A stretch of 64,000 bases of DNA from Candidatus Heimdallarchaeum aukensis (GTDB lineage: Archaea; Asgardarchaeota; Heimdallarchaeia; Heimdallarchaeales; Heimdallarchaeaceae), in contig CP084166.1 in the NCBI GenBank assembly GCA_021513695.1, positions 32,001-96,000 of the forward strand, written 5' to 3'. The notes below the pieces were generated by a model that saw only the letters and a program-made list of their open reading frames with translations, had not been told where the DNA came from and made no database searches. Position numbers and translations under genes: made by a program. Positions 1 to 43,900 of this stretch are shown piece after piece (the stretch's first letter is position 1; every line of letters begins with the position of its first letter).

Positions 1-115
1 TTCTCCCTCTCTTACTTTCTCTCGGTTCCTCTTTCACCAGTTTCTTAAGGAAAGGTTCATTAATGCTTATGAATTCTCTTGCTTTGTGGGGGTCTATGAT
101 CTGAAAGTAAGCCAT
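1..115 (-). CDS. Partial CDS of unknown function. Only the N-terminal 38 codons are in the window; the gene runs off the left edge.
   Basis: Reverse complement gives an ATG at 115-113. The frame stays open to position 1 (MAYFQIIDPHKAREFISINEPFLKKLVKEEPRESKRGR...). No family recognised. Confidence 0.3.
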   Translation of the reverse strand, partial: MAYFQIIDPHKAREFISINEPFLKKLVKEEPRESKRGR

Positions 116-258
116 ACTTCCGACATAAACCCCCACATTAATAAAAATTAATTTTTGGGCATGCTTCTTAAGTTGATTAATGATCTATCTTAAAATTATT
201 CTTTTTAATTATCTAATTAATAGAAAATATTAATATATAAGGTGGAAATAAACTGAAT

Positions 259-3147
259 ATGGCTATCAAAACCAAAAAAAACTCCACAAAGAAGAATTTA
301 ATTACTGTTTTTGTAATTTTCTTGGTTTGTTTTAGTTTTATAAATTGTTTAACCTCTAACTTGTTAACTGTAGTAGCTTCAGGAAGCGGAGATTTTCCAC
401 CTCCAAGTAGTGGAGAATGGACAATATCTCAAGAAACAATAGTTAATTCTGAAGTTATTTATATTAATGATTCAGTTTCAATAGAAAGTGGAGGATCTTT
501 AGTATTAGAAAATTGTGTAATAGAAATGAATGGTAATGAAGATGACAAAGCTAATTTTATAGTTAATAATAATGGTAATCTTACAATAATTAATTCTAAA
601 ATAGAAGCTTTTTCTGATTATTCATGGTACATCGAAGCAGAAGAAGGAGCTTCACTTAAAATTACTGACTCAACCCTAATAAACTTCAAAGGAAGCCAAT
701 ATACATCAGTAATTACACTCTATAACAATTATTCTGAAATTACAAACAATAGTATCTCAAACTTCAAATATAAAGCCATTTTTGCTAGATTTACTAGTCA
801 TCATAATAATATTACAAAAAACAAAATAAGTGGAGGGCTTGTTGGTTTTGAAGTAGTCGATGGATGGTACAACGAGATAAATGATAATGAGTTTCACTTA
901 CTATCACAATTTGCGATTGCTATTAATAATGGTAGTTTTTCAAATATTCTTCGAAATAAAATATTTAATGTTTCTTCTATCGCAATCAATTTCCAAAAAT
1001 CAAAGAATGTTTTATGCAATAACAACAATATTTCTACGTCTAAAACTGCAATTGAGTGCTATTCAATCTATAATAGTAGTATCTCTAATAATATGTTCTC
1101 TAATATTCATGATTATTCAATTAGAGTATATACAGGGAATAATGTCACAATATCAAACAATTCAATTGATAATAGCGATTTAGCAAAAGGCATTATTAAT
1201 TCAGCTATTAGCCTGAGTGCGTGTAATAATTTTTCTATTAATGAAAATTCAATAATAAATACCCCAAGAACAGCTCTAGAAATTTTAAGTTCAACAAATT
1301 GTAGAATTTTTAACAATGTTTTTTCCATTAATAATTACTCTATCTTTATCTCTAGTTCTAATTATCTTGAAATTAAAAACAATTTACTATCTTATTCGAA
1401 TGATTATTCTATGTGGTTTATTAAATCAGATTTTTCATTGTTTGAAAACAACACAGTTAATTTTGGTCAATCTTGTGGAATTAGACTAAGTAGCTGTAAC
1501 AATAATTCTATATTAAGGAACATCATATTCAATAATAGTAAATATGGTATCGATATTTCTTCAAGTAATAATAATACGATACTGGAAAATGTTTTTGTTT
1601 TAAACAATAATGGTTCTATTCAAGCTTATGATAATGGATTAAATAATAGCTGGTATAGTAATTTAGAATCTGTTGGTAATTTTTGGAGTGATAATAATGG
1701 ATCATCTTTCTATTTAATAAATGGTGAATCAGGTTCTATGGATATTTTTGCGAATTATTCTGATTACGATAAAGATTTTATTCCTGATTATTATGAACTT
1801 GAAGTTGGTTTAGATATAACAATAAATGATGCTAATGACGACTTAGATGGGGATGGTTTGTCAAACTTCGAAGAATTTACTCTGGGTACTTTTCCTAATG
1901 ATCCTGATAGCGATGATGATGGTTTAATTGATTCAGTAGAAGTAGACTTGAAAACTGATCCTATGTCTAATGATACAGACAATGACAACCTTATTGATGG
2001 GTTAGAAATTCAATATGGATGTGACCCCTTTTCAAATGATACAGACATGGATGGACTAGATGACTGGTCAGAGATATTCTACTACTTCACTGACCCTTTA
2101 GATTATGACACTGATGGTGATGGGTTATCTGACTCTGATGAAGTTTATGCATATAATACAGACCCATTGGACGCTGACACTGATGATGATGGCTTAAATG
2201 ATGTAACTGAAGTACTAGGTTATGGTACTGATCCCAATGATGCAGATACAGATGGAGATGGATTAACAGATTACGAAGAAGTGATTGAATATTTTACTGA
2301 TCCTACGGATGTTGATACTGATGGTGATGGTTTAACAGATTATGAAGAGGTAAAATATTATGGAACAAATCCTAGGAAAGCTGACACTGATGGTGATGGA
2401 ATTTCTGACAATGATGAATTAATTCAAGGAAAAGATCCATTAGTCAATGAGAAACAAAGAAATGTAAGGATAATAATTATTGTATTTTCTGCTTTAGGTT
2501 CTGGTATACTGTTTATAGGATTAACTGTGCTGTTGATACTATTCCTGATAGAAAAGAACAAAAATAAAGAACAAGCATTGTTATCCCTTTTCAAGAAAAA
2601 AATTAGAGAACTAGAAAAGAAAATTAATATTATTGAAACAACAAAAATTGAAGAACTTATGTCTAAGACAGAAGAAAGAGCGAAAATTGATACTTTTTTC
2701 AATGAATTCCTTGAGGTTTTAGTGGACTTCGCAACATATTTTCTGGAAAATGAGGAATTAATTGAGAATAAAAAATGGTTACAAGCCAAAAAGAAGCTAA
2801 ATGAAGAATTAGATAAAGTGAGAGATTGGATTAATAAAAATCTACGTGCTCTAAAGGAATATGATATTTATGACAAACTAGTAAACCAGATAGATGGATT
2901 AGAAAATAAAGAAGAAATTAAGATTAGCAAGTTAGAAGCTTATAAGGAGATTGAAATTGCAAAAGGTATTTTGAGAGAATTCAAAAAAGTAGTAGAGAAA
3001 ACTTCTCCTTTTATCAACAAATTTTCCTATTCTACTTTAACTAAATATTGGGAGATTACAACTGAACTTATATTTGCTAATATGACACAGCTAGAAAAAA
3101 TTGAGGAAAAAATAAAAGATCTACTGGAAAGAGAGAAAACTCTATAA
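259..3147 (+). CDS. Type I membrane surface protein. It has an N-terminal signal/anchor, right-handed parallel beta-helix repeats, a thrombospondin type-3 (TSP3) Ca-binding repeat array, a TM helix and a roughly 195-aa cytoplasmic coiled-coil tail.
   Basis: - Hydrophobic N-terminus: [18 protein letters not shown].
- Many approximately 22-aa N/I/S-rich repeats (..I.NN.IS.....I....S.NN.I.NN) typical of PbH1/NosD-type beta-helices.
- At least 10 DxDxDGLxDxxE motifs at DNA 1830-2440.
- TM segment [27 protein letters not shown] (2466-2550).
- K/E-rich heptad-like tail (2551-3144).
- SD-like AGGTGG at 239-244. Confidence 0.8.
1830..2440 (+). repeat. In-frame TSP3-type Ca-binding repeat array within CDS 259..3147.
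   Basis: Reiterated DxDxDGLxDxxE codon blocks (gat..gat..gat gg. tta ..). Confidence 0.8.
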
Positions 3148-3497
3148 TCTTAATGTTGTTTTTTTCTATTTTTCTTCTTTTACTATTTCTTTTTTAGTTA
3201 AATATTAATTTTAAACTTTGTAACTAGTTTTTCTTGAGAAAGGACTCTTCTCCAGTGAAAAAAACCATCTTCTTGGAATTTGGTCATAATAAAAACATAC
3301 TACCTTTTCGGCAATGGAAATTACCTTTTTTTCCTCTGAAAAGTGGATGCAAATTTATTTATGTGAAGTACTCATTAACCGTCCTAAACGTTTTTTCAAT
3401 GTTCTACCTATGTTTACAAAATATCAGAAATATGTAAAAAGAATAATAAAAGCAAAATAAAAGTAAAAAGAACAAGAAAAAAAGATATAAAAAGATA

Positions 3498-6400
3498 TTA
3501 TTTTCTAGATCTATTTGTTTTTATTGCAAGAATGGTCAAGCCTAAGAGTCCTAGAACGAAATAGAGGAAACTGAATGGATTTTTGGTTGTAGTCTCTTCT
3601 GGATGACTGTTTGAGTCAATAGGGTTAAAACCATTAGACGCTTCGTATCCATCAGTCCAACCATCTCCATCAGTGTCATTATTATGAGGATCAGTATTCC
3701 AATAGAATTCATCTCTATTAGTTAAACCATCTTCATCAGGATCTTCATTAGCATCATCTACTAAAGGATCTAAGTTGTTGTCTACTTCCCAACCATCAGG
3801 CATACCATCATCGTCGGTATCACTGTCAGTAGGGTCGGTGTTATTTGTATATTCTCCTAGATTTGATAAACCATCACTGTCTTTATCATCAGACCCATCA
3901 TCTGTTAATGGGTTTAATTCATATTTTAGTTCCCATCCATCGTCCATTCCATCTCCATCAGTATCTGCGTCAGTGCTTTGAGTGCCTAAAACTACATCTT
4001 CAAGGATATCATCTAAACCGTCTCCATCTATATCAGTTCCACTTATTGGATAAAGATCGACTGAAGAAGCCGTTCCTTGAATATTGGTATAAGTTCCTGT
4101 TGTTCCATTGTAGTCTGACCAATAGTTACCTACTTTTATTTCATCATTATACCATAGATTATTTGACCCATCATCTATAGCTAAAGTAATTTGGTCAAAG
4201 AATAAATAAGAAGCTGAAACGAAATAATTTTGATAGATTAGAGCATTAGAAATCGTAGAAGATAGTGAGATTAAGCAATAAATTTGCCTAATTTCTCCAT
4301 TAATATCAATTATGTCGAATATTTTATTGTACGTAATAATTGCTCCATCAATATCTCCATCTAAACGAATCCCTGCATTAGATACCGTGTTTTCTATGAT
4401 ATTTATAACATTTCTAGTAATCTCGAGATTTTCCCATTGTCCACGAATGTATATTCCTATAGTTCCTCCAGAATTTATTTCATTGTTGTCTATAACAAAA
4501 TTATTTCCTCCATCATTGGCGAAATAAATACCACTGTAAGATGATCCTAGATTTGTTGTTATTTGGTTATATGAGATAGTTATATTGTTGAAGATATTAC
4601 CACTAGCAACATAAATTCCTTTATTACAGTTGCTTATTTGGCTATTAGTTATTATTACATTGTCTACTTTTCTAGCATAATCAGCATAAAGTTCAATTCC
4701 TGAATCTACATTGGAGATGATGGTGTTATTTATTATTAAGCCGTCTGCGGCATAGACATCAATAGCGATTTCTTCATAATTTGATATTATTACATTTTTT
4801 ATTGTAAGATTTTCACTATCAAAAATATATATTGCTTTTGTTGATGTACCATCATGTAAATTTAGGTCTTCAAGAAAAACATTTTTTGAAGTATCAATAC
4901 TTATACTTCCATGTTCAATCTCTGCATTTACAAAAGTAATATTGGTAACTTCGTAAAAGTTTGAGGTACCTGAAAGGGTGTTACTTGTTATTTCGAAATT
5001 ACTAGAATAAGAAATGTAAAACGAGGTATTGGATGACAATATAGCATTATTTGTTATTTCTGTGAACTTTTCTGGCAGATTTGCAATAGTAAAAGCTCTA
5101 TCTACATTTTCAATATAATTGTTGGTAATGTATGTATTTCCTTCCAAAGCGTTACCATAAGAGGAAGTTATTGTGAAAACTTTTTCTGAATCTGAAATAT
5201 CGTTATTATCAAAAGTGACATTACCCACGTAAATTAGATCAAAAGCGGTATTATTAGCGTCTACTATCTCATTATTCACTATTGTAATATTATCATTTAT
5301 TACATAATTTGTGTTATATTTTTTATTTATATCAAGACCGTAAGATACACCTTCTATTATGTTATCTTTAAAAGTCAGAGTAATATTTGCAGTAGTAGAA
5401 TAATCTAAACACATTCCTTTATTTGCTTCATTAATAGTATTTCCTGTCACATTTAATGATTTCGTGTCATATACTATAATTCCATTATAGGCGTTGATAA
5501 ACTCGTTAGAAATTATAATTATTTCTTCATCAGCATATTGATCAATAGGATTCATAATATAAATCGCATTATCGTAAATATTTTCGAAACCGTTACCGGA
5601 AACAGTAATACTTTTTGAATCTTTAATTAAAATTCCTAAATCTGTATTTGATATAGAAAGTGATTTAATGTTAATATTAGTACAATCAATTAGAAATATC
5701 TGACCATAAATGTTAGTGTCAATATTTTTCGTATCGTTGCTAACAAAATAACCTACTTCTTTATTATTTACTTTGTTTCCCTTTACTATTATTGTATTAG
5801 CTTTTTCTTTAAGTGGTGCTAAAAACATCCCATCATTTACTAAAGTATTATTAACAATCTCAATAGTATCTGTTGTTTCCTTAGCAAGATAGATTCCATA
5901 TCCTTTATTTGACTCTATTGAATTATTTGCTATTATTTCATCATTTGATCCACCATTAATTAACAATCCAATATCATCGTTATTATTTATTGAATTATTT
6001 GCAATAGTAATAAAGTCTCCAGTAATATCTATACCTTTATTGTTGAATGAACAGTTATTTCCAGTTATAATTACGTTGTTTGAACCAGTTGAATAAATCC
6101 CTGCGTTACTATTAGATGAACAGGTATTATTTGCAATTATTGCGTTATTAACACCGTAAATGTTTATTCCATTATTACTTCCTGTTATGGTATTATTTAT
6201 TATCTTCTGACTATTAGTCATATAAACATTAATTCCATCTTCATTTCCACTTACAGTGTTTGATTCAATAGTTGCGATTCCATCAGCCACAGATACAATA
6301 TATATTCCCTTTCTAGATGCTTCAATAGAACAATTGACTATCTTAAAGTAAGCTGTTACGCTTAAACTATGAATATAAATTCCATAGTCTGATGATGTCT

Positions 6401-6614
6401 GTATTTTTAAGTTACTGATTATGTAAGGATCGTCTACTGTACCTGCTCCATCAACAACACCATTAGCTGAAGTAAAATCACTATCTGAAGCAATTACTAT
6501 TGGGTCATGTGTTGTGTATATTTTCAGTTTAGACTGTACGTTATTTAAACTTACAATCAATCCACTGCTAATTACAAGCATTATTAAAAACAATGATTTA
6601 TAGTTTTTCATCAA
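3498..6614 (-). CDS. Surface protein with a signal peptide, a long parallel beta-helix repeat region, TSP3 repeats and a C-terminal TM anchor.
   Basis: - N-terminal signal: MMKNYKSLFLIMLVISSGLIVSL.
- Dozens of beta-helix repeats (NN.I..N..GI.....SNN.I.NN.).
- DxDxDGxxDxxE motifs near the C-terminus (DNA about 3640-4030).
- C-terminal FSFLYFVLGLLGLTILAIKTNRSRK anchor. Confidence 0.8.
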   Translation of the reverse strand: MMKNYKSLFLIMLVISSGLIVSLNNVQSKLKIYTTHDPIVIASDSDFTSANGVVDGAGTVDDPYIISNLKIQTSSDYGIYIHSLSVTAYFKIVNCSIEASRKGIYIVSVADGIATIESNTVSGNEDGINVYMTNSQKIINNTITGSNNGINIYGVNNAIIANNTCSSNSNAGIYSTGSNNVIITGNNCSFNNKGIDITGDFITIANNSINNNDDIGLLINGGSNDEIIANNSIESNKGYGIYLAKETTDTIEIVNNTLVNDGMFLAPLKEKANTIIVKGNKVNNKEVGYFVSNDTKNIDTNIYGQIFLIDCTNINIKSLSISNTDLGILIKDSKSITVSGNGFENIYDNAIYIMNPIDQYADEEIIIISNEFINAYNGIIVYDTKSLNVTGNTINEANKGMCLDYSTTANITLTFKDNIIEGVSYGLDINKKYNTNYVINDNITIVNNEIVDANNTAFDLIYVGNVTFDNNDISDSEKVFTITSSYGNALEGNTYITNNYIENVDRAFTIANLPEKFTEITNNAILSSNTSFYISYSSNFEITSNTLSGTSNFYEVTNITFVNAEIEHGSISIDTSKNVFLEDLNLHDGTSTKAIYIFDSENLTIKNVIISNYEEIAIDVYAADGLIINNTIISNVDSGIELYADYARKVDNVIITNSQISNCNKGIYVASGNIFNNITISYNQITTNLGSSYSGIYFANDGGNNFVIDNNEINSGGTIGIYIRGQWENLEITRNVINIIENTVSNAGIRLDGDIDGAIITYNKIFDIIDINGEIRQIYCLISLSSTISNALIYQNYFVSASYLFFDQITLAIDDGSNNLWYNDEIKVGNYWSDYNGTTGTYTNIQGTASSVDLYPISGTDIDGDGLDDILEDVVLGTQSTDADTDGDGMDDGWELKYELNPLTDDGSDDKDSDGLSNLGEYTNNTDPTDSDTDDDGMPDGWEVDNNLDPLVDDANEDPDEDGLTNRDEFYWNTDPHNNDTDGDGWTDGYEASNGFNPIDSNSHPEETTTKNPFSFLYFVLGLLGLTILAIKTNRSRK

Positions 6615-6910: not shown

Positions 6911-7594
6911 ATGATAAAAATGAATATTGAGGGAATTGATTTTCACTGGTTAGGACACGATAGTTTTCTTATCCAAGCCAAAGGTAAGAATATCTATATT
7001 GATCCTTATAAATTAACAAAAAAAGATCTTCCAGAAGCTGATATAATAATCACAACACATGATCATTTTGATCATTGTAATCCAGAAGCTATCGAACAGA
7101 TATGTGGTGAAAAAACTATTTTAGTTGGTCCTAAAGTAACAATAGATAAACTCAATGATATCTCCAAAAAGAAAAAGGTAATTGAACTTAATCCTTATGA
7201 TGAAAAGGAAATTGATGGAATAAAAATTAGTGCAATTCCTGCTTATAACACTCACCGTTTCCGTGATCCAGAAACAAAAACACCTTTTCATCCCAAGGAA
7301 TCAGGACATATAGGACCTATTATTGATGTTGATGGTGTAAAAATTTATCACGCTGGAGATACAGATAAAATACCAGAAATGGAGGACTTAAAGCCACATA
7401 TTGCATTAATTCCAGTTAGTGGTACATACGTAATGGATGTTCCAGAAGCAGTTGAAGCTGCAAAAGTAATTAGTGCTAAAATAACTATCCCAATGCATGT
7501 TGGAAGGGGAATTGGAGAATTATCTTATAGAGAAGAATTTAAAGAAAAACTTGAAAACATGGAAGTAATCCTCTTAGATTTAGAAGAAAGTTAG
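6911..7594 (+). CDS. Metallo-beta-lactamase-fold hydrolase (UPF0173-like).
   Basis: ITTHDHFDH matches the HxHxDH zinc motif. Later YHAGDT and PMH motifs are present. The roughly 225-aa size is typical. Confidence 0.7.
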   Translation: MIKMNIEGIDFHWLGHDSFLIQAKGKNIYIDPYKLTKKDLPEADIIITTHDHFDHCNPEAIEQICGEKTILVGPKVTIDKLNDISKKKKVIELNPYDEKEIDGIKISAIPAYNTHRFRDPETKTPFHPKESGHIGPIIDVDGVKIYHAGDTDKIPEMEDLKPHIALIPVSGTYVMDVPEAVEAAKVISAKITIPMHVGRGIGELSYREEFKEKLENMEVILLDLEES

Positions 7595-7680
7595 CTTCTT
7601 TTTGCTTTCTTTTTTTCTCATTTTTTTCGTTTCAAATAATTGTTTATAAATAAGCTATTTTTTTTTAATCTCGAAGTCTT

Positions 7681-9105
7681 ATGGATGATTATGTGACAGT
7701 AGTAGATAAAAATGTTGAACCTACTAAAATTGAGGCTAAAAGAACTCATTTCGGTAATGTTTTTCTATGGTCTTCCTATGATGCTGCTGATACTCTTTTT
7801 TCTCAAGGAATAATTAGTATTGTTTTTCAACCCTTTGTTTTATTATTAGCTTATGAACAAGGTATAACTAATTATTGGACTGCTTTTGCTTTAATGTCAG
7901 CATTTATGGCTTTTTCAAACTTACTTGTAGCTATTTTTGGTCCAATAATTGGATCTATTAGTGATACGATAGGAAAACGAAAATCTGCCGTTCTTATTTC
8001 AGCATCATTAATGGTTATTTCGACACTAGCTTTCCTCATTTGGAGGAACTTTTGGTGGCTTTCAATAATGTTCGTTTTTGCTAACTTTGGTTATCAAGCA
8101 GGACGAATGTTTTACGATTCAATGATACCTTTCATTTCAAAAACAGATCAAAGAGGAATAACATCTGGTATTTCTGGTTCTCTTAGTTTTATTGGGACTT
8201 TTGCTGCCATTGGATTGGCTCAAGTAGCTTATTCAATATGGGGTAAGTTCTCAGAACCTGGAAAGGTATTTGAAGAAGGTGCATCAATAAGTTATACAAG
8301 CTTAGAATGGTTGACTGTTATAGTTATAGCAGGAATATTAGTTTTTACGATACCCTTTCTATTTTCAAAAGAAAAAGAGAATCCAAATTCATTTTCCTTC
8401 AAACAGAACTTAAAACAAGCTAGACTTGAATTTAAAGACACTTTGAAAGAGATTTTCAAGTACAAGAACGCTTTATTGTTTATTTTGGGTTGGTTTTTTG
8501 TAACTGATGCAAGTAATACTACAATTTTATACATGCAACTTGTAATGATTGATGGTGTAGGAGCTGATCCTGGTCAAGCATTAATGATTATTGCAATGGG
8601 TGGACTTTTATCAATGATTGGAGCAATTATTGTAGGTGTGCTTTTAGATAAACTTGGACCAAAGAAAAATTTCATTATCAACATATTCGCTTGGTTTATT
8701 GCAGTAAGTATAGCTATTATTGCATGTATTGAGGTAGATGGAAAACACATCGTTCCTTGGCAAATAATGTTCTTAGTTGGATTCTTTATTGGAATAGGAT
8801 TCGGAGGAATATGGCTTATCGGAAGACAATTTGTTTTTGAAGTTGCTCCTCCGAAGAAAGTTACTCAATATCAAGGATTTAAACAAATTGCAGGAAGAGT
8901 AAGCGCCATTATAAGCCCAATTATGTTCTTGTTGATGCTTGGTTTAGGTGCTAAACTTGGTTTGAGTATTTCCAATCAATATGCAATTGCTCTTGCTCCT
9001 CTCTTAATATTCTTTACAATTGGACTAATAATTGTTCTAAAATATGTTGATGTTCATAAAGAATATCTAGCTGGAGAAAGAGCTCCATATAAGAAATTAC
9101 AATAA
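7681..9105 (+). CDS. MFS transporter (UMF1/Atg22-like).
   Basis: About 12 hydrophobic helices. GPIIGSISDTIGKRK is an MFS loop 2-3 motif. A central hydrophilic loop is present. Confidence 0.6.
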   Translation: MDDYVTVVDKNVEPTKIEAKRTHFGNVFLWSSYDAADTLFSQGIISIVFQPFVLLLAYEQGITNYWTAFALMSAFMAFSNLLVAIFGPIIGSISDTIGKRKSAVLISASLMVISTLAFLIWRNFWWLSIMFVFANFGYQAGRMFYDSMIPFISKTDQRGITSGISGSLSFIGTFAAIGLAQVAYSIWGKFSEPGKVFEEGASISYTSLEWLTVIVIAGILVFTIPFLFSKEKENPNSFSFKQNLKQARLEFKDTLKEIFKYKNALLFILGWFFVTDASNTTILYMQLVMIDGVGADPGQALMIIAMGGLLSMIGAIIVGVLLDKLGPKKNFIINIFAWFIAVSIAIIACIEVDGKHIVPWQIMFLVGFFIGIGFGGIWLIGRQFVFEVAPPKKVTQYQGFKQIAGRVSAIISPIMFLLMLGLGAKLGLSISNQYAIALAPLLIFFTIGLIIVLKYVDVHKEYLAGERAPYKKLQ

Positions 9106-34543: not shown

Positions 34544-34709
34544 ACATGATTTTTAAACTTTAAATTTGACTGCTAAAAATGCAACTTTTCAAGGCTTGTA
34601 GTACATTTTATATATTAATTATCGTATAGTACTCTTTAGAGTTCTGGGATTGGAATTGGGGCTATTATTTCCTGGAGTAAGTAATTGAAAATTGAAAAGA
34701 AGTGTAAAA

Positions 34710-37700
34710 ATGAAAAAAAGTAAAATTAAAGTTATTTCTATTATCGCTATTTTTCTTCTCATCTTGAACGTCTCGACGATATACGTTCAAGGTCAGATGG
34801 TAGGTAATGAAACTAAATTAATGATGACTGGAAATCCTACAGAAGTTTATGAAGATCAGATAGCGATTCTGTATGATCCATTTAATGATATGACAAGAGA
34901 ACTAGCAAATTCGATTTATGAGACTGTTCATATGTTTTATTCTAACGTGAAAATGGTCAAAGTTTTCAATTTAGATTCATTTAACAGAGCTTTTTATGAT
35001 GATGATTGGATTAAAATCTATGTTTTCGACTCTGACTTAAAAGGAATAAAATTTGCTGGTTGGACAATGTCATGGAGAAAACTAACTGGATACTACAATG
35101 TTTTCAAAGATACAAGGCACATTGGAGTTTATGGAAACTCATACAAGATGGGTCCATATCTTAAGACTGAAAACTGTTATATAGAAAATACAGAGATTCT
35201 AGATTATCGTATTGCTTACATTCATGTATTGTGGTCATTATATGATATTTTTACAGAAAAAGAAGATGAAATTCTTCAACAAATAGGAGAAAATTTCAAA
35301 TTAATAGCAATTAAATATTTTGGAGATTCATTTGAAGAAATAATGTCTGCCGAGTTTGATCCACAAGGATTAGGTGTTGTTGACCCAAAAAAGGCAGAAG
35401 AAAGATTACAAGATTCAATGGACCAATATCCAAAGAGATTAAATAAAGTTAATCCATATACGGGTGAGTTAGTTGATCCAACAGCAGAGATTGAAGGATT
35501 TAATCCTGTAATGGATATTAAACCCAAAGCAGCGATAGATGAAGATGACATTGTTTTAGGTGAGTTTCCGTTCTTATCTTCGATTCCTGGAGCTGCAGGT
35601 GACGTTATTAAAATAATTTTAGAGTTTATAGGTGTCGAGATACCAGAAGGTTTATTGACTGTAGGTAAAGAATATGGGGGGCAGATCGTCGCAATAATTA
35701 AAGAGATACCTAAAATTATTGGTTTCTTTAAGGATCCAAGTGCAAGTAGTGCTATTGAACTATTTTTTGATGTAGCAAAAGAAATGTTTCCCAGTATAGA
35801 AGAATATAAGCCCTACTTCGATATAGTAGTGAAAGCCCTATTTTCGATAAAAGATATTGCTTCAGGGGATCTTACTCCTTTAATTGATATATCAATGGAA
35901 CTTCTACGATTTATAATTCCTGATAGTGTAGGAGATTTTGTTGACGATGTTTTTGATGCTTTAAACATATCAAGTGCCCTTTCTGATATTATTAGTGGAG
36001 TTACTAATGTTGGTGATTATCTTAAGAGTTTTCTCAATAGGCAACTAATTACAAATTTAATGAAGAAATTTATTGAACAGACTTTAGATCTAGGGGGAGA
36101 ATCCCAAAAATGGATAGATACCATTTCAGAGATTATTATGATTGCTTATGAAATTGCCAGCACTCGAGATATGGATCACATAATAGCGGATGTCTTTCCA
36201 CGATTAGGAAAATTAGTTTACAAGAACATCTTAGATATGACCTATGATGAAAATGTAGAAAATACCTTCAAAGGAATTGCTGTTGCAATTAAGATGGGTT
36301 TTGGAGCTGCTGGAATCATTGATGTTAATCTTAAGGATTCATTTATGGATTTAATAGGCTTCTTCTTCCCTGACCTCGTTGAGACAGTTAATGATGTTAA
36401 ATTCTTTGTTTCAAGTATTAGGTCTCAAATTGATTCCTTTATGGATCTTGTTAAAGATGTTTCAGAAGGTAAAAATCTAGATGTAAACAACGTTCATGAC
36501 CAAATTATATCTTTAATTACTGAGCTTAGTTCATTATCAGGTCATTCTCTCGATGCAAATAAGATAAATGTACTCTCTCAAGCTGTTTTGATGGCTTTAG
36601 CTCTAATAAATGGTGATTTTGAAGCTTTAAGTGATACTAGCTGCCTAACAAGTCTAGTTGATGGATTTCTAGAACATTTTATTGGACTAGAAGAAGGTCC
36701 TAGAGAAATTGTACAAAAGGCAATAGAAGCTGGAGCAGCTATTTTACCTTTCATTACTGGGAAAAAGAGTTTGAAAAAATATATTATGGGAAGACTTGAA
36801 GATTTTGCTGACAAATTCAAGAATCCTGGAGAAATAATTGAAAAGGTTCTTTATTATTTCCTAAGCAAGTACAACGCAAGTACTCAACTTTACCAACTTA
36901 TTGGAAAAATTGTAGGAATAGTCATTGACATCTTTTCTGGAGGATTTGACTTTTCTGTTCAAAATGTTATTCAGACAATAATCTCAATGGCAGTTGTAGT
37001 TTTGAACATGTTAGATGTCAATATTCCGTTAGAAGCAATGTACAAGAGTTTTCAACTTCTATGGGAAGAGGGGCCAGAATTTTCCAATGTTGTAAAAGTA
37101 GTTCAAGATATTATGGGATTACTTGGAGGAAGCATTGACCCAACAATTAAAACTACTGTAGAAACAGTTCTTACTTTTCTAGGAGGAGCAAAGAATATCT
37201 TCAAAGATGGAATAAAATGGATAATGAACCAACTTGTAGGTTGGGCAGCAGGGCAGATTGCTAATTTATTAAATATGCTTACTGATAAATTAAATGAACT
37301 GTTCCAATCTCTTGGTGATTTGGTAAGTTATGATTCTGAATTCCCAATTGGTTTCGGAAGTTTTACTGCCTTCCAGATGCGAGTATTCTTCTCTTTAAGT
37401 CCTGGATTCGAAATTAACCCTGAACCAATTCAAGAGCTCATTATGAGTATGATTTTTGATGGGTCAAAGGTTTTTGATCTCGATAATATCGGAGAATTGT
37501 TTAAGCTTATCTTAAAATCAATTTCAATTATTCCTATTTTCAAAGCTGGACTTGAAATCAAAGCAGGAACGTCTGGAAAGAACGACTTAATGAAGATGCT
37601 CCTTGATTCTCTTGGTCTGGAACTTTCATTCTCTGGCTCTGCAGGACTAACACTGCAATTAATGAAGATTTCTAATGGTAAAATAAGTACTAGTGATTTC

Positions 37701-40700
37701 TTCAAAGTAATAGAATTCTTCTTTAAATTCCAGATATCAATAGCTAAAACATTCCCATTAGCAGAATTTCTAGGTCCAGGAGGAGCAGTTTTAGCTAAAG
37801 TTGCAGAATTCTTAGGTTTAGGTGGAATTTACCTAAAGATAGAGTTCTTTATAGCAATAGAAATTGTTAAACGATGTGAGACACCTACTCAGAAGGCTGC
37901 AGATATTTTAACAATTGTAATAGGAATAGGTGTTTCTGTAATTATTGATATCGACTTGGTAATTGTTGGAATAAAAATAACTATAGGTTTTGTAGTGACG
38001 CTGACGTTTATCCAGGACTTCTTGGCGGACGCACCGCTGCAAGTGATACTCGAGATAGAGTTCACTGTAGCGGTGAAACTGACGTTCTTGTTCGTCGACT
38101 GGACAGGAACAGCGTCATGGGGTCCAGATCCAATTTATCTGGCAGGAGGACCGGATGATGAAAGCACAAAAGACGAAATGAGCGGCTTGGACGCAGATGG
38201 GGATGGGTTACCTGATTCATATGAGTTAGGAGTTCCAGGAATGAAAGTAGACAGCGATGACAGTGATGGAGACGGTTTATCAGACCAATTCGAAGTGAAA
38301 ACGAGTAAAACAGACCCTATCACTGCAGATTCTGACGATGATGGTCTAGATGATTACATGGAATATGAAGTCTTAAAGACCAATCCTCTACAAGTAGATA
38401 GTGACTATGATGGTTTAACTGACTATGAAGAAGTTGTTATCTATGGAACTGATCCTAATGCACAAGATACAGATGGTGATCAATTAGATGACTATTACGA
38501 AGTAAATACTGCATGGAATATCACTGGAATAACTCCAAGTGTAAGATTTGTTACAATTGGGGGAGTAGAGTATAAAGATCATACTGATCCTCTTAATCCT
38601 GATACTGATGGTGATGGACTTCTAGATGGACAAGAAGGAGAATTTGGGGCTTATTATGGACCAGAATTGTATAACACTTCAGACCCAAGTTGGGATCCCT
38701 ATCCAATATTCTACAATCAAGGATATACTCATCCATTAGATAATGATACCGATGATGATTCTTATAAACAATTAGCAAATGGAACTATAGCTCCAGATCG
38801 TCAGTTCTTAATCTATATGTCTGATAAGGTAGAAATAGATGGACAATGGGTTATTTTCATTGAAGATGATGAATTAATGGGTAGAGTAGTTAGAACTAAC
38901 CCAATTAACCCTGATACTGATGGTGATTCAGCAGTAATGGATAAATCTTGGAGAGGTGATGGGGCTCCTCTTGACTTTTTCCTGAAGTCTGATGGTTACG
39001 AACTCTGGTTAGATCCGCCGACAGACCCGAATGACGCGGATATGGACGATGATGGATTAATTGACGGTTTAGAGGGTTGGGGTAATAAGATCAGTAATCA
39101 TACTGATCCTCGTAATCCTGATACTGATGGTGATGGACTTGGAGACCTGCAAGATATTCTACTCGGTTCGGATCCTTTGAACCCTGATAGTGATATGGAT
39201 GGAATTCTAGATGGTGAGGAGTTCTTCAAGTATGGAACTAACCCCGCTTATGAAGATACAGATCATGATGGGCTTTTGGATGGTGAGGAAGTTTATCTAT
39301 TCCACACAAACCCTCTGGCGGTAGATAGCGATGGAGATGGGATAGATGATGGAATGGAGGTATTAGTTTATGGTTCAGACCCGATGGATGAAGATATGGA
39401 TAACGACGGTCTAACAGACTGGGAAGAGATTTTCTACTACTTTACCAATCCTAGAGATTACGACTCAGATGATGATGGTCTAAGTGATGCTATGGAGGTT
39501 TTAGATGAATATGCTATATACACTGACCCATTGAATTGGGACTCTGATAATGATTCAATCACATATCCTAATGAAAACGGAAATTATACTTTCCCACTTT
39601 CTGATGGAGATGAAGTACTAATTTACGGAACTGACCCATTGACAAGCGATACTGATGGAGATGGATTGCACGATTCGTTTGAACTATATCTTGGTTCAGG
39701 TTTAATTTACAACTTTACTCCTGTACCTTTGGATCCGTTATCTAACGATACTGATGGAGATGGAATATATGATGCAAATGAATACCACATTGCAAATGTC
39801 TCTAACATCATTTATCCTTATGTTAGTTTTATCATCACCCAACCTTACAATACTTCTCCAGTAGATCCAGACTCTGATGATGACGGGATTATCGATGGAG
39901 ACGAAGTCTATGTATATGGAACTATGCCAGATATGAAAGATACAGATGGAGATGGACTAGACGATTGGAGTGAACTTAATATTATGTATACTAACCCTCT
40001 GAGTTCGGATACGGACAATGACTATCTGACAGATTGGGAAGAATGGTATGCGGGTTTTGAACATCCAGGATATCTACTTGATCCTAACGACCCTGATTAT
40101 GATAATGATATGCTGCCAGATGGGCCAGAGTTACTACTTTACGGTTCTAATCCTAATAATGCCTATGAGATTGATCCAAGTTCAGGAAAAGTCGATGGTC
40201 TGTTGATGGATTGGGACCATGATGGTCTAGAAGATGGTTTAGAGTTCTTTGTATACAACACTAGTTATGTAGCAGGAGGAGGAGTCACCCAGCCAGATAG
40301 TGATAGAGATGGTTTGATGGATGGTGCAGAAGTATATGTTCATGGTACAGTCCCCACGAATTGGGATACTGACAATGATACATATAGTGATGGATTAGAA
40401 GTGATGTTAGGACTAGATCCTCTTACATATACAACAGAAGAGGAATTTATAGCAGCTCTATCTGCAAATCAAGATATGCTAGAAGCAGGAGTACTAGTTA
40501 TCTCACCAATAGAAGGTGGAATTTACTCTCCTTCTAACTATACTTTCATCCTCTATAACGTGACAGAACTACTGGGCGTACAATATCAAATGAAGAAGAA
40601 CAAACAAGATTTCGGAGACAACATGAGTATGTACTATGATGATGTTTCAAGGACGTGGATAACTCAAGGAGATTATATTGGACCTGGAGATTATATCGTC

Positions 40701-40913
40701 AGATTTTATGTGACAAAACCTGATGGAAATGTTTCGTTTATAGAACGGACGTTTTATGTCGAAGGAAGTCCAGTTGTCTCTCTACCTTGGGTCTTTGCGG
40801 GAATAGGTGGGGGAGTAGCTATTGGTGTTGCTTCAACTTTGACCGTTTATGCAGGAAGAGCAGGAAAACTGCGATTCTTAAAGAATATCTTTAAAAGAGG
40901 AGGTGCTTCATAA
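34710..40913 (+). CDS. Giant surface protein (about 2,067 aa). Domains in order: signal peptide, orphan N-terminal module of about 1,130 aa (helical then beta-rich), long TSP3 repeat array, beta-sandwich-like domain, C-terminal TM anchor.
   Basis: - The ATG at 34710 gives MKKSKIKVISIIAIFLLILNVSTIYVQG. The track start at 34692 is a TTG.
- More than 25 DxDxDGxxDxxE motifs lie at DNA about 38180-40400.
- C-terminal anchor: VFAGIGGGVAIGVASTLTVYAG.
- The stop overlaps the next start (TAATG). Confidence 0.85.
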   Translation: MKKSKIKVISIIAIFLLILNVSTIYVQGQMVGNETKLMMTGNPTEVYEDQIAILYDPFNDMTRELANSIYETVHMFYSNVKMVKVFNLDSFNRAFYDDDWIKIYVFDSDLKGIKFAGWTMSWRKLTGYYNVFKDTRHIGVYGNSYKMGPYLKTENCYIENTEILDYRIAYIHVLWSLYDIFTEKEDEILQQIGENFKLIAIKYFGDSFEEIMSAEFDPQGLGVVDPKKAEERLQDSMDQYPKRLNKVNPYTGELVDPTAEIEGFNPVMDIKPKAAIDEDDIVLGEFPFLSSIPGAAGDVIKIILEFIGVEIPEGLLTVGKEYGGQIVAIIKEIPKIIGFFKDPSASSAIELFFDVAKEMFPSIEEYKPYFDIVVKALFSIKDIASGDLTPLIDISMELLRFIIPDSVGDFVDDVFDALNISSALSDIISGVTNVGDYLKSFLNRQLITNLMKKFIEQTLDLGGESQKWIDTISEIIMIAYEIASTRDMDHIIADVFPRLGKLVYKNILDMTYDENVENTFKGIAVAIKMGFGAAGIIDVNLKDSFMDLIGFFFPDLVETVNDVKFFVSSIRSQIDSFMDLVKDVSEGKNLDVNNVHDQIISLITELSSLSGHSLDANKINVLSQAVLMALALINGDFEALSDTSCLTSLVDGFLEHFIGLEEGPREIVQKAIEAGAAILPFITGKKSLKKYIMGRLEDFADKFKNPGEIIEKVLYYFLSKYNASTQLYQLIGKIVGIVIDIFSGGFDFSVQNVIQTIISMAVVVLNMLDVNIPLEAMYKSFQLLWEEGPEFSNVVKVVQDIMGLLGGSIDPTIKTTVETVLTFLGGAKNIFKDGIKWIMNQLVGWAAGQIANLLNMLTDKLNELFQSLGDLVSYDSEFPIGFGSFTAFQMRVFFSLSPGFEINPEPIQELIMSMIFDGSKVFDLDNIGELFKLILKSISIIPIFKAGLEIKAGTSGKNDLMKMLLDSLGLELSFSGSAGLTLQLMKISNGKISTSDFFKVIEFFFKFQISIAKTFPLAEFLGPGGAVLAKVAEFLGLGGIYLKIEFFIAIEIVKRCETPTQKAADILTIVIGIGVSVIIDIDLVIVGIKITIGFVVTLTFIQDFLADAPLQVILEIEFTVAVKLTFLFVDWTGTASWGPDPIYLAGGPDDESTKDEMSGLDADGDGLPDSYELGVPGMKVDSDDSDGDGLSDQFEVKTSKTDPITADSDDDGLDDYMEYEVLKTNPLQVDSDYDGLTDYEEVVIYGTDPNAQDTDGDQLDDYYEVNTAWNITGITPSVRFVTIGGVEYKDHTDPLNPDTDGDGLLDGQEGEFGAYYGPELYNTSDPSWDPYPIFYNQGYTHPLDNDTDDDSYKQLANGTIAPDRQFLIYMSDKVEIDGQWVIFIEDDELMGRVVRTNPINPDTDGDSAVMDKSWRGDGAPLDFFLKSDGYELWLDPPTDPNDADMDDDGLIDGLEGWGNKISNHTDPRNPDTDGDGLGDLQDILLGSDPLNPDSDMDGILDGEEFFKYGTNPAYEDTDHDGLLDGEEVYLFHTNPLAVDSDGDGIDDGMEVLVYGSDPMDEDMDNDGLTDWEEIFYYFTNPRDYDSDDDGLSDAMEVLDEYAIYTDPLNWDSDNDSITYPNENGNYTFPLSDGDEVLIYGTDPLTSDTDGDGLHDSFELYLGSGLIYNFTPVPLDPLSNDTDGDGIYDANEYHIANVSNIIYPYVSFIITQPYNTSPVDPDSDDDGIIDGDEVYVYGTMPDMKDTDGDGLDDWSELNIMYTNPLSSDTDNDYLTDWEEWYAGFEHPGYLLDPNDPDYDNDMLPDGPELLLYGSNPNNAYEIDPSSGKVDGLLMDWDHDGLEDGLEFFVYNTSYVAGGGVTQPDSDRDGLMDGAEVYVHGTVPTNWDTDNDTYSDGLEVMLGLDPLTYTTEEEFIAALSANQDMLEAGVLVISPIEGGIYSPSNYTFILYNVTELLGVQYQMKKNKQDFGDNMSMYYDDVSRTWITQGDYIGPGDYIVRFYVTKPDGNVSFIERTFYVEGSPVVSLPWVFAGIGGGVAIGVASTLTVYAGRAGKLRFLKNIFKRGGAS
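38180..40400 (+). repeat. In-frame TSP3-type Ca-binding repeat array within the giant CDS 34710..40913.
   Basis: More than 25 DxDxDGxxDxxE units, interrupted by short non-repeat inserts. Confidence 0.8.
40897..40905 (+). promoter_or_regulatory. Shine-Dalgarno sequence for the second giant gene. It lies inside the 3' end of the first gene, and the stop and start overlap (TAATG).
   Basis: GAGGAGGTG lies 7 nt upstream of the ATG at 40913. The TAA at 40911-40913 shares its last A with the ATG. Confidence 0.7.
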
Positions 40914-43900
40914 TGCACGTAAAAAATAATTTAATTTGGAAGAAAGTATTAATCCTTTCTTTATTAGCTATAATGATTAGTTCACTAGTAGTAGGAATGC
41001 CCAATGCTCCGTTTGTTAATGCAGAAACTAATTCTGCACAATCTTTGCCTGATACAATAAGTTTAGAGGAAGCTAAACAACTAATGCAACAAATAAATGA
41101 AGGCAATGGTGGGGGCAACTTTGCTTCTGTTGAGCAACAAATCATTGATCCTGATTTAGATTTAAGTAGGTTATTAGCTGATAATCCTAATGAATATCAA
41201 CAAACATATCAACCTTGGAAATCTCAAGCTGCTGTTAGAAGTATAACCATCTCTGATGATTATGAATTTATGGCAGTAGGGGGAGGATATCTCTTTGACA
41301 ACGAAGTACAAGTATATCGATGGAACCCTGATATTAATCAATATGCTAAAGTTTGGGTGAGTGGAGATTCAGTTATTAAAGGCGATGTAATAGATGTCGA
41401 TTTTGGAGATACTGATAATAATGATTTCTTAGAAATTATTGCCACATCTTCTGACGGGTATTTCTACGTCTTTGAACAAGAACATATTTTTGACCCTGTA
41501 ACAAATACAGAAAATAGATTTGATCTTGTTTACACTAGTCCTTATTTAGGTCAAGTGTGGGGTGTAGAAGTTAATGATACAGATTTAGATCATCTAGACG
41601 ATATAATTGTCGTAAGTTGGGATCACAAAGTACATGTTTATGAATATTGGTTACACTCTGGTTATCCATTCAATTCAGAACATTGGATTACATATAGAGA
41701 AAAATGGCAAAGTCATGATACAGGTTATCATTTGTCTTCTTTAGTTGTTGGAGATACAAACTATAATGGTCTTCCAGACTTTGTTGTGGGAACGAGAGAA
41801 GGAGCTATTCTAGTTTTCGAAAATAATGGAACTATTTTAGATATCCAAGGACAACCTTATCCTCTTGCCCAAGATAATAGTTACAAATTAATTTATGCTG
41901 ATAATGAGTCAATTTGGAGACCAATTTACTCTATGGATATAGGTAATCTAGATAACTCTCCAGGAGATGAAGTAGTAATAGCTTCCTTTGCTTTTAATGG
42001 ATACATTCTAAGGTATGATGATTATAAAGGATATTACTTACAGAAGCTGATAAAAGACTTTGAATCTTGGACTTTGAAAGACTTTTATCCTGCAGATCAT
42101 TATGTAGATAATGGAACAGCAGGACAAAATGTATATTTCCAAGATCCAAATTATACAGGAACAACAGTTGAAGAGCCTATTTTGCAAAGTAATCCTGCAT
42201 TTATAAAAGGAAACTATCCCTATAATACTGGAGCTGCGCAAAATAATGATACATGTTATACTCATTTCGAATCTAATAGTACTCATGCTGCATGGGAAGT
42301 ATATGATTTTGGAGCAGATGAAGAGGGAACAGGAAATGGGAATGATGCTGCAGACATATTATTAAAATTCAAAACTTTACTATTTGATTACATATATAGA
42401 GATGATTTTATTATTTCTATCTCTCCAGACTATGAACATTGGGTAACTGTTGATCCTTCTCTTATTAATACATTTAATGTTGCCGCATCAACAAAATATC
42501 TCAGAATTAATGTAGATCCAATTTTAATTGAAAATAAATGGAATTACTTCAGATACATCAATGTAACAGTAATTTCTAATTCTACCAAAGATTATAACTT
42601 GTTATCTATAGAATTGCCTTATGTTTACCAAACTGTTTCAACAGCTTTAAGTGCTGAAGTGGGAACTTTAATGACCAGTACAGATACTAATGAAGAAGTT
42701 ATCCATGCAATTTTAGGAACAGTTGATGGCCGTCTTGTAGCTTTTAAATATGATGCCACTTCAGACTCGTTTGTTTTATCTTGGGATAGCTGGGTAGATG
42801 ATAGATTTACTGTTGGAATAAACATATGGGATATAGAACAAGTTAAGAATCTAGGCTCTATGCCTATGATATACGGAGTTACTGATTTGGAAACAGGTTA
42901 TCAACTTAGGATAAGTCCCTCTCCAGGAAGCCAAATTTCACAAGTGATTTTTGATTATACATTGTTCAATATTGATGGAGATTCTCCAGTTACAGGCGAA
43001 TTTGCAATTGTGGGTGGTAATGGAGATGTGTATTACTTTGATAATGGATTTGATTATGATGCTGCACAAACAACCCAATACTTCTCTTCGATCAACGATT
43101 ATGCAACTTATACAGGAAATATATCAATAGGTGCAGTAGAAATTGATACAGACTATTCCCAAGAAGAATTACTTATCGGTCATTACGATCCAAGTCTTTC
43201 TAATCAATACGATGACTTTGAAGATGATTCTTCAGATGTACTTCCAGCAGATATAAAAATATGGACACAAGTATCTTCAAAATATGAGTTAAATATATCA
43301 CTTTATAGTTTGGAAACAACTGGTCAACTTCGTGAAATATTAAAAAGTGCTCAATCAATTCCTTCAGCAGAAGGAGAGGATATTGATGGGGACGGAGATG
43401 TTGATATTGTTGTTTGTATTGAGAATCTATATCTACTTTGGAACATAGGAACACCAAGTAATCCAGAATTTATTTTGGATTCTGATTACTTTAAAGATAT
43501 AAATGAAGTAAAAGGAAGAAGACAATTCCTACATCCTCAATTTGTGGAATTTGAAATGGATGGAATTTATGATCTATCGATTGGCTACTCAAATAGAGTG
43601 GGAGCAACATATTTTGATAATTATGGAACTGCTCTTGCTCCTAAATGGGAAGAAAGAAAAGAGTTAGTTAACAACTTTGATGAAGAAGCTACAATAAATG
43701 TCTATAACTTTACTAGACCTCTCTGGATAAAATATTCAGAATTTGATGAATATTCTACTTTGTTATTAGAACATAATACAGGAAAGAGCTACTATGACAA
43801 GTACTACATATATACAATGCTAGATGATAGAAATGGTGACATGGTTTACTTCATGATTTCAAATAAAATACAAACTAGCTTCATGGTAGCATCTAATCCT

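Follow-up and report, generated by a model that had tools for sequence, protein, structure and literature searches.

What does an archaeal surface protein that is anchored by a single transmembrane (TM) helix do with almost two hundred residues beyond the membrane? The question is raised by P1, one of two convergent genes at the start of a stretch of 64,000 nucleotides from “Ca. Heimdallarchaeum aukensis” (GCA_021513695.1, contig CP084166.1, positions 32,001 to 96,000), here called the window. In the list of open reading frames (ORFs), P1 occupies positions 259..3147 on the forward strand and encodes 962 amino acids (aa), while its partner P2 occupies 3498..6614 on the reverse strand and encodes 1038 aa if read from a TTG codon; the spacer between them is 350 bp. 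The reading frame of P2 is open both at this TTG, at position 6614, and at an ATG one codon downstream, at 6611 (3498..6611, 1037 aa). The ATG is the more likely start, since the ortholog in “Ca. Heimdallarchaeum endolithica” PR6 begins with MKNYKSL and a TATA-like sequence, tttataaaa, is located about 30 nt upstream. Both proteins combine a parallel β-helix, TSP3 repeats and one TM anchor, as supported by Pfam matches above the cut-offs and by hydropathy, and as the first-pass annotation, made by a model from the letters and the ORF list, had recognized. That annotation had also placed the P1 tail exactly (aa 765-962, DNA 2551-3144), which is 198 aa long rather than 195, and had correctly described the tail of P2 as short, although it consists of seven residues (KTNRSRK) and not six. 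The comparisons below suggest that the P1 tail should rather be seen as the short form of a cytoplasmic helical domain, so far undescribed, that is restricted to the Heimdallarchaeaceae.

The tail is rich in lysine, glutamic acid, leucine and isoleucine, its DNA contains no tandem repeats, and its mean local entropy of 3.1 bits is ordinary. A word-indexed search of 5.8 billion proteins retrieved just two near-identical copies. When phmmer was run exhaustively against 1.84 billion cluster representatives, four proteins were matched, all from Heimdallarchaeaceae, namely the ortholog and the distantly related P0003, P0004 and P0005 (library-wide E-values from 4e-5 to 2.5e-4 at 24-31% identity). 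Of the three distant matches, P0003 and P0005 are full-length and contain TSP3 repeats, one TM helix and a poly-K/R stop-transfer segment followed by the matched region, while P0004 is a tail fragment of 252 aa. The homology is independently supported by this shared layout, because the query held neither the TSP3 repeats nor the TM helix. A tblastn scan of one genome per GTDB species identified the tail domain in PR6 only, an organism that is also classed in the family Heimdallarchaeaceae, where it is present in the P1 ortholog and at two further loci, L006 (1e-17) and L007 (8e-11). The search among other Asgard proteins that the first-pass annotation had envisaged leads, by phmmer and genome scan alike, to Heimdallarchaeaceae, and its assumption that the DNA is of Asgard origin is right. 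As the only exhaustive search was a single-sequence phmmer run, more distant relatives of this fast-evolving, K/E-rich tail could be missed. With the tail alignment as profile, a word-indexed search returned the near-identical copies and P0004 only, and two scans of metagenome contigs gave no match, which is a weak negative, since JGI contigs that carry the gene exist.

An alignment of eight tail sequences contains 16 invariant columns. The most conserved motif is located at aa 918-931 in P1 (3010..3051, forward strand), with the consensus F-I-[DN]-[EK]-F-[TS]-[FY]-S-x-L-x-x-Y-W, in which F154, I155, F158, S161, L163, Y166 and W167 (tail numbering) are invariant in all eight. P1 retains every invariant residue of the family, and a profile of the tail family gave a score of 226 bits for P1 in a local hmmsearch, over profile positions 1-199. 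The conserved, predicted all-α core of the tail comprises aa 809-962 (2683..3144, forward strand), as outlined by phmmer, tblastn, the alignment, the AlphaFold2 model and the ratio of non-synonymous to synonymous substitution rates (dN/dS). In the comparison of the window with PR6, dN/dS is 0.31 for aa 811-962 (13 synonymous and 19 non-synonymous changes, p=0.004 against neutrality) and 0.35 for the whole tail, compared with 0.05-0.13 for two housekeeping neighbors. The K/E-rich juxtamembrane helix that precedes the core (aa 765-808; 2551..2682, forward strand) is heptad-like for three to four heptads, with a register score of 0.55-0.6, but is variable and poorly aligned across the paralogs. 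The first-pass annotation had named a tail outside the cell, or one of low complexity and poor conservation, as the finding that would speak against it; the tail is instead predicted to be cytoplasmic (see below), the paralogs share 24-35% identity and the same TSP3-TM-tail layout, and the core is under purifying selection. These results indicate that the tail is a real conserved domain and not low-complexity filler.

The loci L006 and L007 correspond to the C-terminal ends of PR6 proteins of 2162 and 2071 aa, both of which contain an N-terminal FG-GAP/PQQ-type β-propeller, a very long TSP3 array, one TM helix and the tail. P0005 is named as a Heimdallarchaeaceae protein and is encoded on JGI contigs of the sample series that also yielded L003 and L004, two contigs that carry P1. 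Its frame, which is broken at a run of ten T residues, extends upstream into a β-helix ORF, and we therefore regard its gene as a second gene of the type β-helix, TSP3, TM and long tail. The homopolymer (L008 1171-1180) splits the gene into ORFs of 292 and 716 aa, and the same split is seen in L009 and L010; either phase variation of the surface protein by strand slippage or an error in the assembly of the homopolymer could explain it. A third β-helix and TSP3 protein, 677 aa long and with a C-terminal TM helix and a short tail, is encoded at L008 4502-6535. As this gene adjoins the long-tail paralog, the β-helix/TSP3 genes are clustered at more than one place in the genome. In at least four paralogous proteins, two of them FG-GAP giants and two of them β-helix proteins, the tail module is present and is invariably preceded by a TSP3 array and a TM helix.

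All paralogs except P1 contain a further C-terminal module of about 100 aa, ending in AIDSLLxxYDEWxKxxxGKK. In P1 nothing follows the last long helix, and the PR6 copy extends two residues further. No remnant of the module was found in the 350-bp spacer downstream of P1, and the idea that a lost module is hidden there was rejected. The module shows no match to Pfam, NCBIfam or PDB; a word-indexed profile search with it also returned nothing, but this null result is unreliable, as known members were missed too. A winged-helix-like fold was a guess from the sequence pattern and is not claimed, given that the AlphaFold2 pLDDT (predicted local distance difference test) is below 50 and that no family was matched. 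The same module forms the end of a 291-aa protein with neither TSP3 repeats nor an ectodomain (hhalign 93.8%). The gene for this protein is located in PR6 (L007 9657-10532, reverse strand), convergent with and just downstream of the gene for the 2071-aa protein, and its product, which ends in AIDSLLEDYEKWIKQGIGKKV, could be a partner in the cytoplasm or a paralog. Beside it, directly 3' of the gene for the 2071-aa protein, is an ORF of 132 aa (L007 9227-9625, forward strand) whose product looks like a CheY-type receiver, judged by reading of the sequence only.

In the window itself, two giant genes abut at 34692-40913 (2073 aa) and 40913-48922 (2669 aa). The former, the giant near 38-40 kb in which the first-pass annotation had seen related TSP3 modules, indeed contains TSP3 repeats, preceded by a long N-terminal half that is unassigned in Pfam and has many hydrophobic stretches; the latter contains FG-GAP_3 repeats. 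The giant at 34692-40913 was considered as a tail paralog and rejected, as both giants end in a TM helix and a short basic tail. A short basic tail after a C-terminal TM anchor is the pattern in three of the four large surface proteins of the window, and a conserved cytoplasmic domain of 200-310 residues on single-pass surface proteins departs from this usual pattern.

We consider it probable, though by no means assured, that the paralogs P1 and P2 are exported envelope proteins that present a β-helix on a TSP3 stalk, that their heads are adhesin-like and that the P1 tail serves in docking or oligomerization. The two genes would be transcribed convergently as monocistronic units. Each product is exported by means of its N-terminal signal sequence, displays a right-handed parallel β-helix on an acidic, Ca-binding TSP3 stalk and is held in the cytoplasmic membrane by a single C-terminal TM helix, where P2 ends. 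On the predicted topology, P1 continues into the cytoplasm, with a charged, locally heptad-like helix of about 45 aa followed by the conserved, predicted all-α core of about 150 aa. The ectodomains may bind glycan or matrix in the manner of adhesins and not act as enzymes. The tail may be an intracellular domain for oligomerization or docking, by which the surface protein is clustered or coupled to a partner in the cytoplasm; the heptads next to the membrane would help in self-association. From this arrangement we infer a possible receptor or tether function for P1. The protein would be accessory, given that the reference species has lost it.

Several observations weigh against this reading. 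The β-helices match generic models only (Beta_helix and NosD), which do not separate binding from catalysis, and for the P1 tail neither Pfam nor NCBIfam nor the PDB sequences offer a relative: searches of Pfam and NCBIfam with the tail alone and with all eight family members at E<=10 gave scattered chance matches, none of them consistent, and a PDB sequence search with the tail-family profile gave nothing significant. The AlphaFold2 models are of moderate confidence (pLDDT 63 and 66) and were built on alignments of five to six sequences. P1 lacks the C-terminal module of its paralogs, and the first 46 residues of its tail have a dN/dS of about 0.9 and no detectable constraint, a value based on just five changes. 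The 15-aa flanks of the P1 TM helix are charge-symmetric (+2/+2). Finally, P1 appears to be dispensable in PR6, since it has been inactivated three times over there.

The first of the competing explanations to be weighed, and the one that retains a real if minor probability, is that the ectodomains are surface-displayed enzymes, such as polysaccharide lyases, hydrolases or depolymerases, which serve in feeding on polymers outside the cell, while the tail merely stabilizes the insertion into the membrane. It is established that pectate lyases, polygalacturonases and tailspike depolymerases fold as parallel β-helices, and long Beta_helix and NosD matches are present in both proteins. The β-helix of P1 covers approximately aa 55-478 (421..1692, forward strand) and ends in the cap motif VGNFWSD, while that of P2 is longer, approximately aa 40-833 (4113..6494, reverse strand), and ends in VGNYWSD; the motif, VGN[FY]WSD, is also common to the P0005 gene and the 677-aa protein. 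Against a Pfam gathering cut-off of 25.9 bits, Beta_helix (PF13229) scores 105.9 bits in P1 (2.1e-30, three stretches) and 153.5 bits in P2 (4.5e-45, five stretches), and NosD is matched at 1.4e-20 in P1 and at 8.1e-36, in six stretches, in P2. The NCBIfam parallel β-helix repeat TIGR03804 scores 28.7 bits in P1 and 20.0 bits in P2, with a cut-off of 19.45. A further point in favor is that Heimdallarchaeum was enriched from multispecies biofilms with an extracellular matrix (PMC8813620). However, at E<=0.1 the only Pfam families matched by P1 and P2 are Beta_helix, NosD, TSP3_bac and Binary_toxB; no catalytic β-helix family, such as pectate lyase or GH28, and no FG-GAP family is among them, and neither ectodomain has a relative among the PDB sequences at E<=0.01. 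Feeding enzymes would also leave unexplained why a conserved cytoplasmic domain is shared with FG-GAP proteins.

The TSP3 array of P1 is located at 1762..2439 (forward strand) and that of P2 at aa 860-997 (3621..4034, reverse strand), with DxDxDxxxD cores every 22-23 aa, ten in P1 and six in P2, and a tandem period of 69 bp is seen at 2245-2400, within the TSP3 DNA of P1. TSP3_bac (PF18884, cut-off 25 bits) scores 122.9 bits in P1 (4e-36, seven stretches) and 28.1 bits in P2 (1.8e-06, two stretches). On these scores, P1 and P2 are assigned to the TSP3_bac and parallel β-helix repeat families. They are distant paralogs of each other, with 28% identity over 555 aa (E=6e-12). The dN/dS of the ectodomains is 0.19-0.24 in the comparison with PR6, and 0.23 for P2. 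The ectodomain architecture is ordinary, and β-helix and TSP3 surface proteins are commonplace.

A somewhat weaker candidate, and in our view an unlikely one, is that the tail of P1 is a relic in decay: the protein would descend from a long-tail paralog that lost its C-terminal module, the helical rest would have no function of its own, and the lineage would be in the course of losing the gene. An identical protein is encoded on contig 468 of Logan SRR15988954 and intact 962-aa versions at 98% identity are present in the JGI contigs L003 and L004. In PR6 (CP084167.1, here labeled L002), where the region has a DNA identity of 92-93% to the window, three independent lesions have turned the P1 ortholog (L002 6138-10873) into a pseudogene, namely a stop near codon 268 (window ~1062), a 1-nt deletion at window position 1290, and an insertion sequence (IS) of 1820 bp in the TSP3 region (window ~2046), which is of the TnpB type (Cas12f1-like_TNB) and has imperfect terminal inverted repeats of about 15 bp and a duplicated CATG. 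In favor of decay, the nonsense mutation, the frameshift and the insertion are joined by the missing module of about 100 aa, which all other members of the family contain, and by a tail dN/dS that exceeds that of the housekeeping neighbors and is about 0.9 in the juxtamembrane part. However, the dN/dS of the tail core is significantly below 1 and no worse than that of the ectodomains, and the invariant residues of the family are all kept. The ORF is moreover intact in the window and in L003 and L004, its end coincides with a clean domain boundary, a T-rich tract comes after the stop codon, and there is no trace of a lost module downstream.

A second IS is located in the spacer between P1 and P2 in PR6 (L002 11078-12089; window ~3335-3348). 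It encodes a 312-aa integrase of the rve family and is flanked by the direct repeat C[AC]TCTGAAAAGTGGAT, about 16 bp long. P2 is intact in PR6, where the ortholog consists of 1038 aa, but is split by a gap of about 52 bp in L003 (12323; window 4842-4893). Precisely at this gap, L003 changes from 97.7% to 90.0% identity with the window, which suggests either a strain-chimeric assembly or a recombination breakpoint. Surface genes of the P1/P2 type turn over fast. The synonymous divergence from PR6 is about 0.15 in P1/P2 (259-6611), compared with two adjacent genes at 6911-9105, where it is 0.45 for the MBL-fold protein and 0.33 for the major facilitator superfamily (MFS) protein. Lineages could recently have exchanged the segment with the surface-protein genes, or codon constraints could account for the difference.

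The first-pass annotation had read the P1 tail as a coiled coil, and had proposed a receptor-like or cytoskeleton-tethering topology. It was right about the K/E-rich composition and about the heptad-like pattern of the first ~45 aa, but the pattern does not extend over the rest. The claim in its strongest form, that the tail is a long canonical two- or three-stranded coiled-coil rod which tethers the membrane to a cytoskeletal filament, appears improbable to us. In its favor, apart from the composition, the mean best heptad-register score of the tail is 0.38, compared with 0.28 +/- 0.035 in shuffled sequences, and aa ~767-790 hold one register. They are, however, the only part of the tail that does, and the part that the first-pass annotation had cited; elsewhere the best register shifts about every two to four heptads. 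The Fourier power of the hydrophobicity is 63 at a period of 3.6 but 0.5 at 3.5, and the periodicity and register analyses did not reveal the continuous 3.5-residue periodicity over most of the tail that a canonical long coiled coil should have. The helix is broken at G880, G903 and P917, and AlphaFold2 predicts eight helices of 5-39 residues with loops between them (pLDDT 63); for the tail of P0005, the pLDDT is 70-90 over residues 1-220 and below 50 beyond. The conserved positions are, furthermore, aromatic (F, Y and W), which is typical of the core of a packed bundle. The P1 tail is thus modeled as a short juxtamembrane heptad segment of about 45 aa followed by an elongated helical-bundle domain of about 150 aa, for which no specific fold family can be named. 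The models resemble the STAT coiled-coil domain, the C-terminal domain of exocyst Sec6, the middle domain of MukF and the Habc domain of syntaxin at 6-15% identity (pLDDT 63-66), a resemblance that would say “elongated helical bundle” and nothing about family membership.

The tail is predicted to be located inside the cell, as the first-pass annotation had proposed when it called P1 bitopic. In both proteins, hydropathy plots show a signal-like segment at the N-terminal end and one more TM helix. In P1, the putative signal peptide or signal anchor covers aa 1-42 (259..384, forward strand), with the basic n-region KTKKNSTKK and a hydrophobic core (Kyte-Doolittle peak at aa 10-40), and a cleavage site between VVA and SG is suggested by eye. 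The TM helix is located at aa 738-764 in P1 (2470..2550, forward strand; Kyte-Doolittle peak 2.72) and at aa 1013-1030 in P2, where helix and KTNRSRK tail together span 3501..3575 on the reverse strand. A signal sequence followed by a single further TM helix places the C-terminal end of P1 inside. The composition changes accordingly across the membrane: the P1 ectodomain contains 116 D/E and 31 K/R residues and 23 N-X-S/T sequons, whereas the tail is charge-balanced (40 K/R and 41 D/E) and contains one sequon. In the four paralogous tails, the flank on the C-terminal side of the TM helix has a net charge of +6 to +9 and that on the N-terminal side of -1 to +1, and the paralogs carry a poly-K/R stop-transfer segment right after the TM helix. 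The predicted cytoplasmic position of the tail rests on the signal sequence, the contrast in composition and the paralogs rather than on a topology predictor, and is well supported but not proven. That the topology is inverted or the TM helix not real, so that the tail is extracellular or the hydrophobic segment is a cleaved sorting signal, is very improbable, as the symmetric 15-aa flanks of P1, which would fit it, become +9/-4 on the C-terminal side when 25 aa are considered, as the signal sequence, the stop-transfer segments of the paralogs and the near absence of sequons and of acidic bias from the tail all disagree with it, and as no archaeosortase-type signal was detected at the C-terminal end of P2, the only one tested directly. 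For P2, the last 60 aa matched none of the NCBIfam models for such signals (PGF-CTERM, PEF-CTERM and others) at E<=10. A sorting signal is therefore not supported, on a negative that is weak in that such short models are hard to match.

Among known systems, the best NCBIfam matches to P1 and P2 are CglD and MtsD from Myxococcus, which belong to the proteins with TSP3_bac repeats. Similar to P1 and P2, they contain Ca-binding repeats of the form DxDxDGxxDxxE in an exported, acidic surface protein, and the matches are confined to the TSP3 stretch. P1 and P2 differ in that they are archaeal and TM-anchored and contain a β-helix, and none of the known TSP3-repeat surface proteins has a cytoplasmic tail of the P1 type. 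The scores are 55.4 (P1) and 25.1 bits (P2) for CglD, with a cut-off of 400, and 42.6 and 32.6 bits for MtsD, with a cut-off of 800; NosD proper (TIGR04247, cut-off 300 bits) scores 27.7 bits in P2 and is not matched by P1, and nos genes are absent nearby. As these scores are far below the cut-offs, P1 and P2 are neither NosD, CglD nor MtsD. With the β-helix and NosD-like proteins (PF13229, PF05048 and TIGR03804), they share PbH1 repeats over 430-800 residues, export and a C-terminal anchor, but the combination of a TSP3 stalk with a conserved cytoplasmic domain, as in P1, is not part of those families. The adhesin-like surface proteins of methanogens provide a further comparison for parallel β-helix proteins. 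Literature searches found no description of Asgard β-helix/TSP3 membrane proteins or of a P1-type tail.

The nearest concept in the literature, as far as it is presented in PMC9258230, is that of the Asgard “integrin repeat-containing” proteins (Liu et al. 2021, as cited there). Like integrin-like FG-GAP proteins and eukaryotic integrins, P1 is predicted to be a single-pass type I protein, in which a large Ca-binding ectodomain is joined to a tail in the cytoplasm. It is tied to the integrin-like proteins only via the two FG-GAP giants of “Ca. Heimdallarchaeum endolithica”, to the tails of which its own tail is homologous. The head of P1 is a β-helix, unlike the FG-GAP propeller of integrins, and the tail of the P1 family is a predicted helical bundle of about 200-310 aa, unlike the short NPxY-type tail of integrins. 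The P1 tail shows no sequence similarity to integrin tails or adaptors, and no heterodimer partner is known.

The genes around the pair encode an MBL-fold protein, an MFS protein, an EamA protein, an AsnC protein, a GT4 protein and a response regulator, and give no functional clue. GGTGG is located 13 nt before the ATG of P1. Scans with bacterial promoter and terminator models performed no better than on shuffled sequences, and such models are uninformative for an archaeon. Between P1 and the equivalent of window positions 1-206, PR6 (L002 3375-6096) and the JGI contigs (L003 5374-7640) contain about 2.5 kb that is absent from the window and encodes an aminotransferase and a C-terminally TM-anchored protein of 276-302 aa.

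What is new here is a tail domain that recurs in one Asgard family on surface proteins with different heads, at least four in number, among them integrin-α-like FG-GAP giants. The tail family, P1 as its short form and the PR6 pseudogene with its three lesions go beyond what the first-pass annotation had seen. The weight of P1 itself is tempered by its loss from the reference genome. If the tail is only a membrane-proximal oligomerization domain, it would be a modest addition to the catalog of lineage-specific domains. A more far-reaching idea, which we offer as speculation and hold to be improbable, is that the tail domain is a common cytoplasmic adaptor of integrin-like adhesion and signaling in the Heimdallarchaeia, with modular Ca-dependent receptors, built of FG-GAP propeller or β-helix heads on TSP3 stalks, passing binding or force inward. 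Inside the cell, a partner would receive this input, for example the cytoskeleton, a small GTPase or the 291-aa protein, and the module of about 100 aa in the long forms might bind nucleic acid or protein after release. If this were true, it would represent a prokaryotic analog, and possibly a forerunner, of eukaryotic outside-in adhesion signaling. More generally, if the tail couples the surface to the cytoplasmic machinery, it would offer a concrete way to approach how partners and matrix are sensed or held by the archaea most closely related to eukaryotes, a question that bears on syntrophy models of eukaryogenesis.

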